This document shows, one piece after another, positions 52,251 through 61,601 of a stretch of DNA of 64,000 nt. The position numbers and the translations under genes were made by a program. Under the pieces are notes generated by a model. It searched no databases and was not told where the DNA came from. It was given only the letters and a program-made list of their open reading frames with translations. The DNA comes from Gemmatimonadota bacterium. Lineage in GTDB: Bacteria > Gemmatimonadota > Gemmatimonadetes > Gemmatimonadales > GWC2-71-9. How positions within the stretch are numbered: the first letter of the stretch is position 1; each line of letters begins with the position of its first letter. The stretch lies in NCBI GenBank assembly GCA_039588295.1, contig JBDHAB010000001.1, positions 160,001-224,000 of the forward strand, in the 5' to 3' direction.

Positions 52251-53168
52251 GTGGCGCACATCCCTGATGGCTTCCTGAGCGCGCCTGTCATCATCGGCAC
52301 GGCGGTGGCGAGCGCCGGGACCCTGGCGTTGGCCGCCCACCGCTCGCGTCGGCGACACGAGGAACGAGAGGCACTCGTGCTCGGAGCGGCCACGGCGTTC
52401 GTGTTCGCGGCTCAGATGCTCAACTTTCCGCTCGGTGCCGGTACGAGCGCGCACTTGCTCGGCGGGGTGCTCGTGGGTGCGGTCGTGGGTCCGTGGTCGG
52501 GGATGCTCGTGATGTTCGCCGTGTTGCTGGTCCAGGCGCTGCTGTTCCAGGATGGCGGGATCTCTGCGCTTGGGGCGAACACGCTCAACGTGGCGGTGAT
52601 CGGTGTTGGGGTCGGCTTCTGTGTCTACCGGTGGCTCCTCGCGCTCTGGGGAGACGGTGTCCGACGTCGCGTGACGGCTGCGTCCGTCGCGGCCTTTGTC
52701 TCAACGGGCCTAGTGGGTGTCGCGGTTGCGATCGAACTCGCGCTCTCCGGCACGGTTCCGTTCACTCCAGCAGTTGTTGCGGTCGGCGGGGGACATCTGG
52801 TCGTCGGGGTCGCGGAAGCTGTGCTGACCGGCGCGATCCTGGGAATGCTAATGCGCAGCCGGCCCGAACTGGTGACGGCAGCGGCTCCGTCGAGTGGCAT
52901 GCGGCGCTGGGCGGTTGGGACGGTAGTGGTGTCGGCTGCTCTGGCGGTGTCGGCCGCGTACCTTGCGTCCGCAAAGCCCGACGCGTTGGAAGCGGCCGCA
53001 TCGTATCTCGGCCTGGGGGCGTCCGGGCCGGTGTCTCGCTCGGCACCCTTTGCCGAGTACACCACGCCGCTCGGTGGTCCGTGGTTCGCTGCCCTCATAG
53101 GAGTAGTCGTCGTGTTCGCCGTCATCTGGATAGTGGTGAAGCTCAACCGGGCAGGTCGGCGCCCGTGA
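52251..53168 (+). CDS. cbiM: Co/Ni ECF transporter S component with PDGLE-like domain (CbiM/NikMN)
   Basis: HIPDGFL, FAAQMLNFP, GTSAHLLGG, DGG..ALGAN, KPDALE. Confidence 0.9.
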   Translation: MAHIPDGFLSAPVIIGTAVASAGTLALAAHRSRRRHEEREALVLGAATAFVFAAQMLNFPLGAGTSAHLLGGVLVGAVVGPWSGMLVMFAVLLVQALLFQDGGISALGANTLNVAVIGVGVGFCVYRWLLALWGDGVRRRVTAASVAAFVSTGLVGVAVAIELALSGTVPFTPAVVAVGGGHLVVGVAEAVLTGAILGMLMRSRPELVTAAAPSSGMRRWAVGTVVVSAALAVSAAYLASAKPDALEAAASYLGLGASGPVSRSAPFAEYTTPLGGPWFAALIGVVVVFAVIWIVVKLNRAGRRP

Positions 53169-53932
53169 GCTTTCACCATCTCGACCAATACGCAACCGTC
53201 GCATCGCCGGTGACCAGGATGCCTCCGACGGCCCGGCTCATCGCGGTGCTCGTGCTCGCCGTGGGGGCCGCGGCGTTGCCGCTGGGTGCGTGGCGGCAAC
53301 TGGGTGTGCTGTTCGCGTTGGTCGCCCTACTCGCGACGGTCGCACGGTTGCCGGCCAAGCTGATGCTCGTGCGCATGACCGGCCCTCTGGGGTTCGTCTT
53401 CCTCGCCTCGGTCGGACTCCTGGTGTTGGTGCCGGGCGACCCCTTGGTGCGGGTCGGATTTCTCCAGGTCAGTGACGCCGGCCTCTTACGGTTTGGGTCG
53501 GTGCTCGGGAGAGCGATCGTCGCGCTTGGCGCGGCGGTCGTCCTCGTAACGACGACCAGCTTCCCGGAGCTGCTCCACGCACTTCGGGAAATCAGACTGC
53601 CCAAGGTCGTTACCACCGCGCTCGGATTGGCGTATCGCCTGCTCTACATCCTCGTCGATGAAGTCGAGCGCCTCCAGCGAGCCGCACGTAGCCGGAACGC
53701 CGGTGCCGGAAGCGCACGGCGCCGACGAGTGCTCGTGGGCGTCGCGGCTGCCGGACTTGCTCGGACGTTTGCGCGCGGCGAGCGCACCCACCGCGCCATG
53801 CTGGCACGGGGCTATCGCGGCGATCTCCCGACGCTCAGCGAACAGCGGTGGGATCGCCGGTCGGTGGTAGCGCTCGTGACGCTCGTGACCCTCGTCGGCG
53901 TCACAACGGTCTCCGCGTACGTGGGCCGGTGA
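53165..53932 (+). CDS. cbiQ: Co/Ni ECF transporter T component
   Basis: L..I.LP, YR, AARSR, AMLARGY; GTGA overlap. Confidence 0.88.
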   Translation: MSFHHLDQYATVASPVTRMPPTARLIAVLVLAVGAAALPLGAWRQLGVLFALVALLATVARLPAKLMLVRMTGPLGFVFLASVGLLVLVPGDPLVRVGFLQVSDAGLLRFGSVLGRAIVALGAAVVLVTTTSFPELLHALREIRLPKVVTTALGLAYRLLYILVDEVERLQRAARSRNAGAGSARRRRVLVGVAAAGLARTFARGERTHRAMLARGYRGDLPTLSEQRWDRRSVVALVTLVTLVGVTTVSAYVGR

Positions 53933-54654
53933 TGGTCCCACTCCTCGAGATCGTGGGACTCGGCTACGCCTATCCTGACGGAACGGCGGCCCTGCAAGAT
54001 GTCTCGCTTGCGATCGCGAGTGGTGACCGGGTGGCGTTGCTCGGACCGACTGGCTCGGGCAAGAGCACACTGCTGCAGCACGCGAACGGCCTGCTCCAAC
54101 CCGCGGACGGGACGGTGGTCGTGGATGGCATCCCCATTCAGGACGACACGGTGCGCGATGTGCGTCGGAAGGTGGGGCTCGTGTTTCAAGACCCCAACGA
54201 CCAGCTGTTCCTCCCGACCCTGCTCGAGGACGTCGCCTTCGGGCCGCTCAATAACGGGCACTCGGTGGTAGAGGCCGAAACGTTGGCCGTCGCGATGTTG
54301 TCGGAACTCGGGCTCGCAGGAGCACGGCATCGGGCCGCCCATCATCTCAGCGGAGGCGAGCGACGCCTTGCGGCGTTGGCGACGGTGCTGGTCAGCCGGC
54401 CCCTTCTCCTGGCGCTCGACGAGCCGACGGGGGACCTGGACGCACGAAGTCGGCGTCGCTTGGTGCATCTGCTCCGCCAGAGACCCGAAACACTGCTCGT
54501 GGCAACCCACGACCTCGAGCTGGCGCGAGCCGTCTGCGGCCGTGGCGTGGTACTGCACGAAGGGCGCGTCGTGACGGACGCGCCCCTGGGTGACCTGCTG
54601 ACGGACCGAGACCTGCTCGAGCGCTACGGCCTCGCCGCGGACCTGTCCGACTAG
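53932..54654 (+). CDS. cbiO: ECF transporter ATPase
   Basis: YPDG, GPTGSGKST, VFQDPNDQLF, EDVAFGP, LSGGE, LDEP, THD. Confidence 0.92.
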   Translation: MVPLLEIVGLGYAYPDGTAALQDVSLAIASGDRVALLGPTGSGKSTLLQHANGLLQPADGTVVVDGIPIQDDTVRDVRRKVGLVFQDPNDQLFLPTLLEDVAFGPLNNGHSVVEAETLAVAMLSELGLAGARHRAAHHLSGGERRLAALATVLVSRPLLLALDEPTGDLDARSRRRLVHLLRQRPETLLVATHDLELARAVCGRGVVLHEGRVVTDAPLGDLLTDRDLLERYGLAADLSD

Positions 54655-54687: not shown

Positions 54688-55305
54688 TTACCGTGTCTGC
54701 TCTACCGACAACGAGGATACGTGCAGGTTAAGTCCGTGGTTGACCCGTAGGCCGACGATCCCATCGGTGTCGACGCTTGAGCGCGGAAGGCTCGCGACTT
54801 GCTGCGCGTTGACGTAAAAGTCCACGGTTTGAGCACCCGCACGGATCTCGAGCACGTTCTTGGCTGTTCCCTCACCGCCGTCGTGTTCGACGATCGCTTC
54901 ATGCGGCTTCCACGGGGACAGTGTCTCCGTCTGCCGGCCGCGCCGCTGCTTGATGAGGAAACTGCCGTCCTTCCGAATGAGGAAGTAGGTGTACGACTGG
55001 TCCGGGCCGTCCAGGTCCCGACCGCCCAGGAAGACCCCAAACGCCTCCCGCCGTTCTCCCGGGAACAGGAAGATCTCCGACTGGACGTGGTAATCACCCG
55101 TCGCCGTGCGGGCGGGGTCGTACAGGATACAGGCCGGCCCCGTTGTGATGTGCCAGCCGGGCGGCATCTCGACGAAATACAGTGCGGAGTCGGGCGAGTT
55201 GGGTCGGTCGAACCGGATCTTCCATTCGGCTGGGCGTTCCAGGTCTTGGGCGGCTGCGGCCTGTGCGATGCAGAGCAAGGCGGCAGCAAGGAGCAGGGGT
55301 CGCAT
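54688..55305 (-). CDS. Secreted beta-sandwich protein (DUF1080/concanavalin-like)
   Basis: GAGG RBS; signal peptide AAAQ; YTYFLIR.DG.F; GIVGLRVNH. Confidence 0.7.
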   Translation of the reverse strand: MRPLLLAAALLCIAQAAAAQDLERPAEWKIRFDRPNSPDSALYFVEMPPGWHITTGPACILYDPARTATGDYHVQSEIFLFPGERREAFGVFLGGRDLDGPDQSYTYFLIRKDGSFLIKQRRGRQTETLSPWKPHEAIVEHDGGEGTAKNVLEIRAGAQTVDFYVNAQQVASLPRSSVDTDGIVGLRVNHGLNLHVSSLSVEQTR

Positions 55306-55591: not shown

Positions 55592-56035
55592 GTGCCCACG
55601 CTTCGTCACGTCACCATTCCGTTAGCGCTCTTCGCCGCCACAGGTGTTGCCTGTGCGGGAGATGGCCCCGCCGGCCCAGGGGGAAACCCGGGTGGTGGTG
55701 GGACGCCCACGTTCGCGGCGGATGTGCAGCCGATCTTCACCACCAACTGCGCGGTTTCCGGATGCCATGCGGGGGCGGCTCCAGCCCAAGGTATGACCCT
55801 CAGCACAGGCCAGGCGTTCGCCAACACCGTGAACGTCGCATCGAACCAAGTTCAGGGCTTGGATCGCATCGAGCCTAATCAGCCGGACCAGAGCTATCTC
55901 GTGCACAAGATCCAGGGCACCCAGGCCTCGGTGGGCGGCAGCGGGAATCGCATGCCACTCGGTGGGGCTTCGTTGTCTCAAGCGGACATCGACACAATCC
56001 GTGACTGGATCACCGCCGGCGCGCAAAACAACTAA
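55592..56035 (+). CDS. Lipoprotein c-type cytochrome with CX4CH motif
   Basis: Lipobox GVAC; Gly/Pro linker; VQPIF...CAVSGCH; SYLVHKI; RMP distal Met; I..WI..GA. Confidence 0.8.
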   Translation: MPTLRHVTIPLALFAATGVACAGDGPAGPGGNPGGGGTPTFAADVQPIFTTNCAVSGCHAGAAPAQGMTLSTGQAFANTVNVASNQVQGLDRIEPNQPDQSYLVHKIQGTQASVGGSGNRMPLGGASLSQADIDTIRDWITAGAQNN

Positions 56036-56071
56036 ACTGCCAACGTCCTCAATCGAGACGGAGGTCTACGC

Positions 56072-57196
56072 ATGTCGCAGCGGACGCGCGGGCTGGCGCT
56101 CGTCGCCCTGGTCGCGGTGGCCGGATTTCTTCCGTGCCGGAGCCTCGTTGCGGAGCCATATCTCGCGCTGCGGACCGGACTCAAGTGTGCGCAGTGTCAC
56201 GTGAACCGGACGGGTGGTGGCGGACGCAATGCCTTCGGCAGCGCGTGGGCCCAAACGCAGCTTCCCATGCACACCGTAGGGATTCGGAGCCGTTCGCTCA
56301 GTGATTGGGTGTCGATCGGCCTTGATCTCCGCGCCGTCGGATCGTGGAATGCGAACGTCGGTGACGGCCTGGAGGGTGCAATACCGCGAACTGCGGTCGA
56401 GATCCCGGAGGCACAGATCCAGCTCGAAGCCCGACTCATCGACGATCGACTCGCGTTCTACGTGGATCAGACCATGGGTCCCGAGCGGGCGTTCGCGCGC
56501 GAAGCCTTCGGTATCGTTGAACGTCTGCCGCTCAACGGCTACGCGAAGGTCGGGAAATTCATGCTCCCGTATGGGTGGCGGATCTGGGACGACGGAGCCT
56601 TCATTCGCGAAGAGACCGGCTTCACGTTTCTCACTCCGGACATCGGGGTCGAGATCGGCATCGAGCCCGGACCCCTCTCGTGGTTCGTCGCGATCTCAAA
56701 CGGGAGCGTGGGGACATCCGAAGGCAACAGCGACAAGATGATCACATCGAGTGCGATGGTGACGTTTCCGCGCTTCCGCTTTGGTGCGTCGGCGTCGCAC
56801 AACAGCGGCGAGGGTCTGGAGACCAACATCGTCGGGGCGTTCGGTGGTGTGTCGGTCGGTCCGTTCTCGGTTCTCGGCGAGGTTGACCTTCTGTTCGATT
56901 CATTCGAGGCGGATCCCTCGGCCAACCAGGACGGCTTCCTGGCGTTCGTCGAGGGGAATCTCCTGGTGCGGAGAGGTCTGAACCTCAAGGTCACGCATGG
57001 GTTCCACGATCCGACGGCCAGCGTTCGAAGCGCGGTGACCGGCACGGCGGAGGACCAGCGGGCGCGAACCCGCGTAGGCGTGGAAGCGTTCCCGATTTCC
57101 TTTGTGCAGGTCGCGGCGTTCTACACGCGCCTCGACAACGCTGGGGAGCCTAACGACATCGACAGGCTGACGCTCGAACTGCACTTCCACTTCTAG
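56072..57196 (+). CDS. Monoheme cytochrome c-porin fusion (Cyc2-like architecture)
   Basis: GGAGG RBS; signal peptide; EPYLALRTGLKCAQCH; beta-barrel strands; C-terminal LHFHF. Confidence 0.78.
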   Translation: MSQRTRGLALVALVAVAGFLPCRSLVAEPYLALRTGLKCAQCHVNRTGGGGRNAFGSAWAQTQLPMHTVGIRSRSLSDWVSIGLDLRAVGSWNANVGDGLEGAIPRTAVEIPEAQIQLEARLIDDRLAFYVDQTMGPERAFAREAFGIVERLPLNGYAKVGKFMLPYGWRIWDDGAFIREETGFTFLTPDIGVEIGIEPGPLSWFVAISNGSVGTSEGNSDKMITSSAMVTFPRFRFGASASHNSGEGLETNIVGAFGGVSVGPFSVLGEVDLLFDSFEADPSANQDGFLAFVEGNLLVRRGLNLKVTHGFHDPTASVRSAVTGTAEDQRARTRVGVEAFPISFVQVAAFYTRLDNAGEPNDIDRLTLELHFHF

Positions 57197-59082: not shown

Positions 59083-60336
59083 GTGTCTACATCGAGACTG
59101 CTGCTAGTCGCCGCGGGCGTGGCCCTTGCGTCCGTGGCGTGCGAGCCGGCCAGCATCACCGACGCGAGGAACCAGCTTGGGCGCGGTGATGAGCGGGTGG
59201 TCGAGTTCGTCCTCCCGGTATCACTCGACACGCTCACGGTGCTCGAGATCCTCGAAGACTTCGTGGACGTGATTCCCATCACCCTCGCCGACGGCGTGTT
59301 GGCCGTCCCGACGGACGACCAGCTCTTCACTGTCGGTACGGGAGCCGCGATCGGCCCGATCTCGGGGATCCTTGACCCTGCGGTGCTGAACTTCGTCACC
59401 GAGCAGTGGCGCGAGGTGAATACGACCTCCCTCAATCTCGGCCAGTTCGATACGGCCGCCCGGGATGCGACCATTAACAGGGGGCTGACCGCGCTGGAAG
59501 TGTCGAACAGTGCCGACGCACCGCTGACCCTGACCGACTTCACGCTCGGTGTCGTGCAGGTGGACGCATCCGGCCAGCCGCTCCGCGACGCGTTTGGCGA
59601 TCTCCTGTATGAAGAGGACACCGGTGTCCCCATCCTAGTCCCGGTCGCCGATCCCGGCGGTCCCACCTGGAGCATCGGGAGGAGTTCGATTCGGGTCGAC
59701 ACGCTGGACGCTCCGCTCCTGGTCGATCGGCTCGTGGATCTGCTGCTGGATGGTGTCCGGGCTGCATTGGTGGGTGCAGGTACCGTGAGTGTAGGGGACG
59801 GCACGGTCGGGACCGTCACGGCGGGTGACCAGCTGCTCGTGACCATCACTCCCATTATCGGGCTCGACTTCACCATCCCGCAGACCGGAGTTGGCTTCGA
59901 CAGCACCACGGTCCAGGACGGGCTGGATCTCGAGCCCGAAGATGCCAACGATATCGTATCGTTGGTCGACTCTGCCGTGGTCGTGTTGACGGTCGACAAT
60001 CAAACCCCCTTTGCGGTCAATGCCACGGTTGCGGTGGTCGAAGGCTCCGTCGTGGGTGACGTATTCGCCGCCCCTGGGGCGGTTCTCCTCGATCCCGTGA
60101 GTGTTGCTGGGGCCACCGTGGACGCCGGCGGTCGGGTGACATCTGCGACGATGGACGTCGCGAGCGTCACGCTCGTCGGGGACGACGTTCGCCCGTTCCT
60201 CGCTGCGCAGTTCACTGCAGGTGTCCAGGTGCAACTGCTCCCGGCCGCGGGGGGCCGGGGCGCGCTGCGTGCCTCGGATCGCGTCATGGTCGAGTCCCAA
60301 GCGCACGTCTTTGTGCGGTCGGGAGGTGCCCCATGA
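59083..60336 (+). CDS. Hypothetical acidic beta-rich lipoprotein
   Basis: Lipobox SVAC; V/D/T-rich beta sequence; ATGA overlap with the next gene. Confidence 0.75.
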   Translation: MSTSRLLLVAAGVALASVACEPASITDARNQLGRGDERVVEFVLPVSLDTLTVLEILEDFVDVIPITLADGVLAVPTDDQLFTVGTGAAIGPISGILDPAVLNFVTEQWREVNTTSLNLGQFDTAARDATINRGLTALEVSNSADAPLTLTDFTLGVVQVDASGQPLRDAFGDLLYEEDTGVPILVPVADPGGPTWSIGRSSIRVDTLDAPLLVDRLVDLLLDGVRAALVGAGTVSVGDGTVGTVTAGDQLLVTITPIIGLDFTIPQTGVGFDSTTVQDGLDLEPEDANDIVSLVDSAVVVLTVDNQTPFAVNATVAVVEGSVVGDVFAAPGAVLLDPVSVAGATVDAGGRVTSATMDVASVTLVGDDVRPFLAAQFTAGVQVQLLPAAGGRGALRASDRVMVESQAHVFVRSGGAP

Positions 60337-61601
60337 AGCGCTCGGGACTGTTCCTCCTGGCCCTGCTTGCGTCGGGGGTGGACCTGGCCGCTCAGGCGGT
60401 GCCGGACCGCTCTCAAGCGGCCCAGTTGCCGATGGCCTATCGCCGCACGCCACAGCTCAGGGTGGATCCGTTCAGACATGTGATGATCCCGCACTGGGGT
60501 CTGGTGATCTCGGGTGGCGCCCTCGCGGGCAACAATACGCTCAACATCGCTGATGTCCGCGCGCTGATCTTCCTGGCCGACCGCGACAGTCTCCTGATCA
60601 GCGACGTGGTGAACACGTTCGGTCTCGTGCCCGCCGGTGCGGGTGTGGTGGGTGATGCCGAGGGCGAAGGAGGAATTCACCTCGGTGGGCCGTTTGGGAG
60701 GCATGTCTCGGTGGGACTTTCGTTCCAGGGTCGCGGCTACGGCGCGTTCCTGGTGGACGACGACGCCGTGGCGCTGCTGCGGGACGGGAATGCCGCCGAC
60801 TCGATCTTCGAGCTGGGGGAGACCCAGGGAGCAGGACTTGGCACGGCCGAACTTGGTGCCCACGCCGTGATACGCCTCGGCCCGCTCGGCACGGAGGATG
60901 GCGTGGAGGTTTCGCTCGGCTTTGGTGGGCGCTATATCCGGCCGCTCGTGTACGGAAGCGCCCAGTCCTCGATCGCGGACAGCCGCGTACTGGTGACCGG
61001 TGACACGGTTGACGCCCAGGTGGACGTGGAAGCGCTCTTCACTCCGGATTTCCAGAGCAACCGAGGGTCCGGCCTCGCGGCTGACTTCCTGGTGCGCCTC
61101 GAGTGGCCGACATCGGGGATTGCCTTTGAAGCGCTCCTCGCCAACCTCGGCAGTGTGACCGTCGAACAGGTCGAACAGCAGGGATTGAGCCTCAACGTTG
61201 TCACGACCGACCTCCAGGTGGTCTCGGATTCGCTCGAGGCGGCGGATTTCACGGTCGAGGACACGGTCGAGGTCTCGGTCAGCCTGCCACGGATTTTCCG
61301 GCTCTCGGCGAGCGCTTGGGCGAATCGCATTCTGCAGCTCGACGTCGCCGCCACCATTCCGGTGGGCGGGGACTTCGAACGTCCCCTGGCTGTCCATCTC
61401 GGCTCGACATGGCGCTTTGTGAATAGCTTCCCCCTGCGCGCCGGCCTGGAGTTAGGTGGGCACCACGGCGTCGGAGTGACCGGCGGATTCGGGATCGAGA
61501 CGCGCAACTTCTACATGCAAACGCTAGGCGGTTCGTTCGGCGGTTTGTTCGAGAGTGCGAATGGCGTGGCGGCGAGACTCGAGCTAGGGTTCTTCTTCTA
61601 G
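60333..61601 (+). CDS. Outer-membrane beta-barrel protein (DUF5723/TraF-like)
   Basis: Signal peptide; G.G...D, LP....L, PLRAG; C-terminal LGFFF. Confidence 0.7.
   Translation: MKRSGLFLLALLASGVDLAAQAVPDRSQAAQLPMAYRRTPQLRVDPFRHVMIPHWGLVISGGALAGNNTLNIADVRALIFLADRDSLLISDVVNTFGLVPAGAGVVGDAEGEGGIHLGGPFGRHVSVGLSFQGRGYGAFLVDDDAVALLRDGNAADSIFELGETQGAGLGTAELGAHAVIRLGPLGTEDGVEVSLGFGGRYIRPLVYGSAQSSIADSRVLVTGDTVDAQVDVEALFTPDFQSNRGSGLAADFLVRLEWPTSGIAFEALLANLGSVTVEQVEQQGLSLNVVTTDLQVVSDSLEAADFTVEDTVEVSVSLPRIFRLSASAWANRILQLDVAATIPVGGDFERPLAVHLGSTWRFVNSFPLRAGLELGGHHGVGVTGGFGIETRNFYMQTLGGSFGGLFESANGVAARLELGFFF

Follow-up and report, generated by a model that had tools for sequence, protein, structure and literature searches.

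The locus examined here lies in a window of 64,000 nucleotides (the whole stretch of DNA that was analysed) and raises the question of whether a gene pair built like a minimal outer-membrane electron conduit, a lipoprotein cytochrome followed by a cytochrome-porin, belongs with the Cyc2 iron oxidases or with something else. For microbial iron oxidation the chief marker gene is Cyc2, and screens that rely on its motifs exclude the family of the porin described here. If this family carries electrons, thousands of sediment and soil lineages possess an outer-membrane route that has not been counted; if it does not oxidise iron, other uses of the Cyc2 architecture are revealed and a limit of the marker is set. 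What is new is a cytochrome-porin family that is Cyc2-like in build, outside Cyc2 by definition and equipped with its own partner. A literature search covering few subscription journals found no description of the family or of the pair, and a marine Gemmatimonadota survey treats Cyc2 homologs in passing only, with direction given as not assignable (PMC11316326).

Layout of the pair and build of the cytochrome-porin

The two genes, termed gene 1 (lipoprotein cytochrome) and gene 2 (cytochrome-porin), are co-oriented and separated by 36 nt, and the coordinates in Table 1 agree with the arrangement given by an earlier sequence-only reading. Each is preceded by a purine-rich ribosome-binding site, and no plus-strand terminator-like site was found in the spacer. 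Both genes have a GC content of 64%, equal to that of the genome, and neither reaches a cut-off in a scan against Pfam and NCBIfam. The Gemmatimonadota host proposed from the letters is upheld by the closest named relatives of gene 2, which are Gemmatimonadota at 70–73% identity. Contigs from three sediment runs (X1–X3, two studies), of which X1 may itself be the source, agree with parts of the stretch at 99% or above, with no single piece spanning it, and the best sources of matching contigs are marine-sediment runs.

Table 1. Features of the gene pair, in window coordinates
Feature	Position	Strand	Description
Gene 1	55592..56035	+	GTG start; lipoprotein of 147 aa whose one cytochrome c domain is class I (c6/PSCyt1-like)
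Predicted lipoprotein signal peptide, gene 1	55592..55654	+	Lipobox-like end at Cys21; assigned by eye and from the consensus AC in the alignment
Gly/Pro-rich tether	55655..55705	+	Residues 22-38; length varies among homologs
CX4CH heme motif	55748..55768	+	CAVSGCH, residues 53-59 (Cys53, Cys58, His59)
Met121	55952..55954	+	Predicted distal heme ligand; invariant Met-Pro, aligning with MP of cytochrome c6
Spacer	56036..56071	+	36 nt; ribosome-binding site GGAGG at 56060-56064, 7 nt 5' of the gene 2 ATG
Gene 2	56072..57196	+	ATG start; 374-aa fused monoheme cytochrome-porin of an unnamed family, placed as sister to Cyc2
Predicted signal peptide, gene 2	56072..56152	+	Cleavage before Glu28; assigned by eye and from the family Ala-x-Ala pattern
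N-terminal heme plug	56153..56260	+	Contains three short helices, CAQCH (56186-56200) and the family motif N-x-x-G-G-G-x-R
Beta-barrel	56309..57190	+	OprP/general-porin fold, 16 strands predicted
Long loop after strand 5 (L3-like)	56561..56638	+	Conserved P166, G168, R170, D173, D174, R179
His371	57182..57184	+	On the final strand; may serve the porin heme as sixth ligand

Gene 2 encodes, in order, a signal peptide, EPYLALRTGLKCAQCH with the heme motif (56186-56200), VNRTGGGGRNAFG and a C-terminal Phe, and the predicted fold places a barrel between the heme motif and this terminal residue, as had been read from the sequence. Counted from the first Cys, Ala occupies position -12 in 85% and position -14 in 52% of 125 family representatives. 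Conservation of CxxCH in homologs had been named as a check on that reading, and the motif proved to be kept in 115 of the 120 best matches (query included), the other five starting downstream of it, and in 126 of 150 distant family representatives; the remaining 24 match from later profile positions only or are fragment-like. In the alignment of 106 diverse rows the heme motif is invariant. A similar heme segment (CxxCH, then N-P-x-G-G-G-x-R-N-x-F-G) is present in a secreted 230-aa protein with no barrel (L181:1390-2079), which suggests that soluble proteins, too, carry the heme plug as a module.

The predicted fold, which had been named as a further check, contains a 16-strand barrel whose best structural match is OprP, the structural homolog also reported for Cyc2 (10.1101/228056); the other best folds are general porins. 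Gene 2 resembles the OprP/OprO phosphate porins and the 16-strand general porins (PDB 2o4v, 5mdo, 3a2s) in its barrel fold, in the long loop after strand 5 and in its C-terminal Phe, but differs from them in having an N-terminal heme plug, 13% identity and no Pfam porin match, and only 6 of 106 family members match Porin_O_P weakly. The family has a median length of 370 aa, with 71 of 222 members below 365 aa. Within the loop the Asp-Asp pair is conserved (D173 in 94%, D174 in 87%), and many conserved barrel residues (Y117, K159, E194, R236, E270, E294, N304, E338 and H371) are located toward the strand ends that would, judging by strand order, be periplasmic, in keeping with a plug that sits in this opening. 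Columns fixed at 90% or more number 23 in the barrel of this family versus 10 in that of Cyc2-motif proteins. The combination of barrel, cytochrome and lipoprotein cytochrome follows the logic of MtrCAB, MtoAB and PioAB (PDB 6r2q); however, the pair has 16 strands and one heme motif per gene, whereas MtrAB, MtoAB and Pcc place a multiheme cytochrome in a barrel of at least 20 strands.

Relation to Cyc2 and the ligands of the heme

Cyc2 has been defined by AXPXFAR[Q/K][T/Y] before CXXCH, PXL after it and a length of at least 365 aa (Keffer et al., 10.1101/228056). Gene 2 has several of the features of this group: a signal peptide (by eye and by family pattern), a single N-terminal CXXCH, a fused 16-strand OprO/OprP-like barrel in the predicted model and 374 aa against the minimum of 365. 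Neither sequence motif is found in the family, as the pre-heme PxFAR[QK][TY] and the post-heme PXL are each absent from all 241 heme-bearing members; in gene 2, AEPYLALRT stands at the place of the former. The comparison set for Cyc2 consisted of 120 metagenome loci with the exact pattern FARQTGxxCxxCH, of which 55 full-length proteins were aligned; as it was picked by a strict motif, it may under-sample cluster 3. Against the profile of these 55 proteins the family profile aligns over 32 N-terminal columns with a probability of 89% and an E of 2.1e-6, keeping register and spacing from the Pro via CxxCH up to FG, and the barrel region gives a weak second alignment (probability 25%). Used as a stand-in, the same profile scores gene 2 at 6.7 bits. 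When the genome of gene 2 itself was searched with it, gene 2 was not matched and one other gene was, a 411-codon frame carrying PxFAR and PxL (C1:292765-293997, E 1e-9), which in turn aligns with the gene 2 family profile over 291 columns that include both plug and barrel (E 2e-6).

Thus, from the profile alignments, this bridge protein and the absent motifs, gene 2 is related to Cyc2 by descent and in architecture and falls outside its sequence definition, supporting a family that is sister to Cyc2 rather than Cyc2 itself. The Cyc2-like cytochrome-porin architecture noted from the letters is supported by CxxCH, the predicted 16-strand barrel and the homology of the heme region, and so is the suspicion of a sister family, raised by a post-heme segment that departs from the Cyc2 pattern; the pre-heme motif is missing as well. 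A weak match of gene 2 to cluster 3 may exist, and function within that cluster has been called uncertain (PMC7029218). In comparison with the Fe(II) oxidases of A. ferrooxidans (Cyc2), Mariprofundus (Cyc2PV-1), Ghiorsea (Cyc2TAG1_1) and Leptospirillum (Cyt572) (10.1101/228056, PMC13741234, PMC13692758), gene 2 has in common the signal peptide, CXXCH 11 residues past the predicted cleavage site, a Pro as second mature residue, an FG that follows the heme and the 16-strand OprP-like barrel. The gene 2 family differs in having the N-x-x-G-G-G-x-R loop instead of PxFAR[QK][TY] and PxL, in being shorter, in the greater number of fixed barrel residues and in the last strand, whose conserved His stands at a place occupied mostly by Trp in Cyc2-motif proteins (37 of 55). 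It also has a dedicated upstream lipoprotein cytochrome, whereas tblastn found none beside the 120 Cyc2-motif loci, many of which are short.

This His of the last strand is found four residues from the C-terminus in 211 of 222 full-length family members and is replaced in the other 11. Corresponding to His371, it is the sole conserved His outside CxxCH (93% of 107 full-length representatives), and no Met is conserved. Its position by strand order, at the periplasmic end of strand 16 and beside strand 1, where the heme plug attaches, makes it the natural candidate for the sixth ligand, and we infer from sequence that it ligates the porin heme.

The sixth ligand of true Cyc2 is a related question, as the published models have one axial heme ligand (PMC13741234) and EPR indicates two, read by its authors as His or Met (PMC13692758); heme ligation in the gene 2 family, by His371 or by the N-terminal amine, bears on this question too. 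Outside CXXCH, no column of the 55 aligned Cyc2-motif proteins has His in more than 20 of 55, and Met reaches 33 of 55 in its best column. At the Cyc2-motif loci (L034–L153), 98% of 118 have Ala at -12 and 81% have it at -14, positions which are not fixed by the search pattern, and predicted cleavage falls at a constant distance of 11 residues ahead of the heme Cys; the 31-aa signal peptide and His47 of A. ferrooxidans Cyc2 give the same cleavage-to-heme spacing (PMC13741234). A cleavage site fixed at this distance would put the amine of the N-terminus on the iron, the arrangement known from cytochrome f, where the amine ligates the heme (PMC6616624). It may be hypothesized that the N-terminal amine is the sixth ligand of Cyc2, of which the literature search found no statement. 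Spacing in the gene 2 family is looser, with Ala at -12 in 85% of distant members and 49% of close ones, in line with His371 taking the sixth-ligand role there. The family is also compact with a high-confidence predicted fold, and Cyc2 relatives have already been expressed in E. coli.

The lipoprotein partner

The product of gene 1 is, as had been read, a lipoprotein cytochrome on a Gly/Pro tether, with Cys21, the tether and CAVSGCH as listed in Table 1. It has 667 homologs of near length, and the 64 rows of its alignment all keep the two Cys, the His and the Met-Pro. The CX4CH spacing is very likely a true heme site judging from these invariant residues, from the CX2CH that proteobacterial partners carry in the same columns and from the fact that the two spacings can coexist in one protein; among 97 porin-adjacent partner domains, 46 have CX4CH and 48 have CX2CH. 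Genes for cytochrome c assembly are represented in the genome by two matches over the cut-off.

With an N-terminal Cys-Cys-His and a distal Met near the C-terminal helix, gene 1 has the layout of a class I cytochrome c. Its profile matches cytochrome c6 best among solved structures (E 8.5e-4; the distal Met aligns in register) and also a heme domain of hydrazine synthase, and a protein-atlas comparison places it near PSCyt1-like clusters. The nearest class is thus cytochrome c6/PSCyt1 (PF07635; PDB 4eid, 5c2v), to which the heme domain at the C-terminus of hydrazine synthase alpha also belongs and with which gene 1 shares the N-terminal Cys/Cys/His motif, the distal Met-Pro and the C-terminal helix. 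Gene 1 differs from this class in its CX4CH spacing, lipid anchor, Gly/Pro tether and scores below the gathering thresholds (PSCyt1, 12.7 of 22 bits; CBB3, 15.6 of 27), though the longer homologs P0392 and P0400 pass the PSCyt1 cut-off. P0400 is a 917-aa CHRD/Ig protein with a partner-type cytochrome domain.

A periplasmic role like that of Cyc1 had also been suggested for gene 1. The c4-type cytochrome Cyc1 is a diheme protein. Assignment of gene 1 to the c4 type, to which Cyc1 belongs (PMC10654088), was rejected on account of its one heme motif, its lipoprotein nature and c6 as its nearest solved relative. The likeness to Cyc1 did not hold, as gene 1 is monoheme and c6/PSCyt1-like and its domain is also used without a porin.

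The two genes do occur together elsewhere, which had been named as a check on the pair. After removal of duplicates and of the locus itself, 89 porin loci remained, 86 of them with at least 500 nt upstream, and in 76 of these 86 the partner domain lies directly upstream on the same strand. Of the ten without a detected partner, two have it on inspection (L033, L197), two contain a cytochrome of greater divergence, two a His-rich lipoprotein and four none. Two cytochrome domains are present in 21 partners, and the domain occurs fused to Ig, CHRD, PKD, lamin-tail and RTX-type calcium-binding repeats, which are typical of exported proteins; no fusion of partner and porin was found among the 120 longer homologs listed of 178. 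In the phylum sample, 24 of 26 porin-bearing genomes carry the partner domain, which is present in 95 of 301 genomes, 71 of these having no full porin; one genome flagged as unpublished is counted in this tally alone. The link between porin and partner is one-way, and the partner domain is a mobile module.

At several loci the partner or its surroundings take other forms. A small Tat-like lipoprotein with three His-x-His and two Cys, possibly a metal-binding substitute for the partner, stands at the partner's place in a betaproteobacterial record (L024:5225-6004) and in L223:1109-1474, and the one that was scanned has no Pfam match. In L197:3019-4077, RTX-type repeats are fused to a partner-type cytochrome domain directly upstream of the pair, with similar proteins among the domain's matches, and additional copies of the domain are carried by a divergent gene 2–4 kb upstream of the pair at four loci (L012:2208-3137, L013:2222-3166, L016, L017). 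Two further copies are present in the genome of gene 1 itself, both away from a heme-porin: a CX4CH lipoprotein paralog directly upstream of a small heme-less barrel (C10:97827-98945, L188; OMP_b-brl, E 0.0012), and a lipoprotein with Ig-like (Big_2) repeats and a terminal CX4CH domain 72% identical to gene 1 (C37:601-2091, L187).

Function and genomic setting

Directly established for the pair are its motifs, the predicted fold, the homology of the heme region to Cyc2 and the conserved pairing; from these we infer electron transfer, its direction and the membrane side of the lipoprotein. On balance the pair is probably, if by a small measure, a periplasmic two-heme electron relay composed of a 16-strand heme-porin and a lipoprotein cytochrome at the periplasmic mouth of the pore. 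The porin heme would be seated where the barrel opens to the periplasm with the lipoprotein heme alongside, and because one heme cannot span the membrane, the substrate would need to go into the pore. Of two partners, a class I heme with His/Met ligation usually has the higher potential, which makes inward flow, with oxidation of a donor outside, roughly twice as likely as outward flow; this direction is favoured without being firm. One Cyc2 has been measured at -130 mV (PMC13692758) and that of A. ferrooxidans at +560 mV (PMC13741234). No third gene is conserved beside the pair across lineages, and no respiratory, iron or manganese gene travels with it; with neighbours this variable, nothing ties the pair to Fe or Mn, the metal-redox role once suggested for it is not supported, and Fe(II) as a substrate lacks specific support. 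A more tentative proposal is that this large unannotated lineage could represent the smallest known outer-membrane electron-uptake device, having two hemes, a barrel His as sixth ligand and a lipoprotein acceptor, and serving a dissolved donor other than iron in sediment and soil heterotrophs.

It is improbable that gene 2 is a divergent Fe(II) oxidase working like Cyc2, in effect a fourth Cyc2 cluster for which the lipoprotein is the electron acceptor. The named hosts of its relatives are, to our knowledge, not recognised iron oxidisers. The same architecture, the homologous heme region and the marine-sediment source of the best-matching contigs agree with such a role, but both Cyc2 motifs are missing in 241 of 241 members, and the Cyc2-motif profile finds not gene 2 but the other gene of the genome, which lies by FeoB, a repressor and two cytochromes. 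Acidic residues in an L3-type loop are moreover usual in general porins, and this tempers the resemblance of D173/D174 to a metal site. The site in question is D137/D138, reported for A. ferrooxidans Cyc2 (PMC13741234), and the likeness is one of residue pair.

An MtrC-like, surface-displayed lipoprotein cytochrome, linked to the periplasm by the heme-porin and exchanging electrons with outside solids or cells, possibly outward, is similarly doubtful. The fusions of its domain with Ig-like, CHRD, PKD, lamin-tail and RTX-type repeats point to display, although Ig domains occur in periplasmic proteins too, and the 21 two-domain partners, the RTX-repeat cytochrome gene directly upstream of the pair in L197 and a genome rich in multiheme cytochromes are consistent with it. 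Display is opposed by the argument that in a 16-strand barrel one heme at the periplasmic end is too little to bridge the membrane (10.1101/228056) and by the prediction that PSCyt-domain proteins are periplasmic or cytoplasmic (PMC5615132). Another alternative is that the pair is a solute channel or envelope sensor, in which the heme plug gates the pore or binds a ligand and the partner sets the redox state of the plug with no respiratory current. We know of no porin gated by a c-type heme, and this reading is considered unlikely. More barrel residues are fixed than in Cyc2-motif proteins (23 versus 10 columns), with an Arg/acidic set like that of a porin constriction, the best folds are OprP and general porins, and respiratory neighbours are absent; a His-rich heme-less lipoprotein also stands at the partner's place in two betaproteobacterial-type loci, and a small barrel without heme follows a further copy of the partner domain. 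However, no transporter, regulator or catabolic gene is conserved near the pair, and the three characterised relatives of the same architecture are all redox enzymes (PMC13741234, PMC13692758).

The genome has a second, more Cyc2-like cytochrome-porin outside the window (C1:288282-301116; L184, L190), the bridge protein described above, with PxFAR and PxL and with RH replacing [QK][TY]. It is followed by two monoheme cytochromes, adjoined by FeoB and an iron-dependent repressor with FeoA domains, and a heme-copper oxidase subunit I is encoded about 6 kb away; this gene is the better candidate for an iron oxidase, ahead of gene 2. Elsewhere (C4:115000-145000; L185, L186), a dense cluster of multiheme cytochromes with 8 to 21 CxxCH each also contains membrane genes resembling those for cytochrome b and polysulfide reductase, and a barrel-like gene flanked by multiheme genes.

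Around the pair, a secreted protein of about 200 aa (54691-55305, minus strand) is divergently oriented, has no Pfam or NCBIfam match and is kept beside the pair in 14 Gemmatimonadota loci, a count that is not dereplicated and includes the locus itself. In Steroidobacteraceae-like and some other proteobacterial loci (L015, L019–L033, L224, L227) the pair adjoins radical SAM, B12-radical SAM, methyltransferase and ABC exporter genes. An ECF-type transporter for cobalt/nickel is encoded in the window at 52251-54654 (plus strand) by CbiM, a membrane gene and an ABC ATPase, and occurs near the pair in about five close loci only. Also on the plus strand (59083-61601), two genes overlapping by 4 nt encode a lipoprotein of 417 aa and a protein of 422 aa with a final Phe; neither product matches a family, and the second is a probable outer-membrane barrel.
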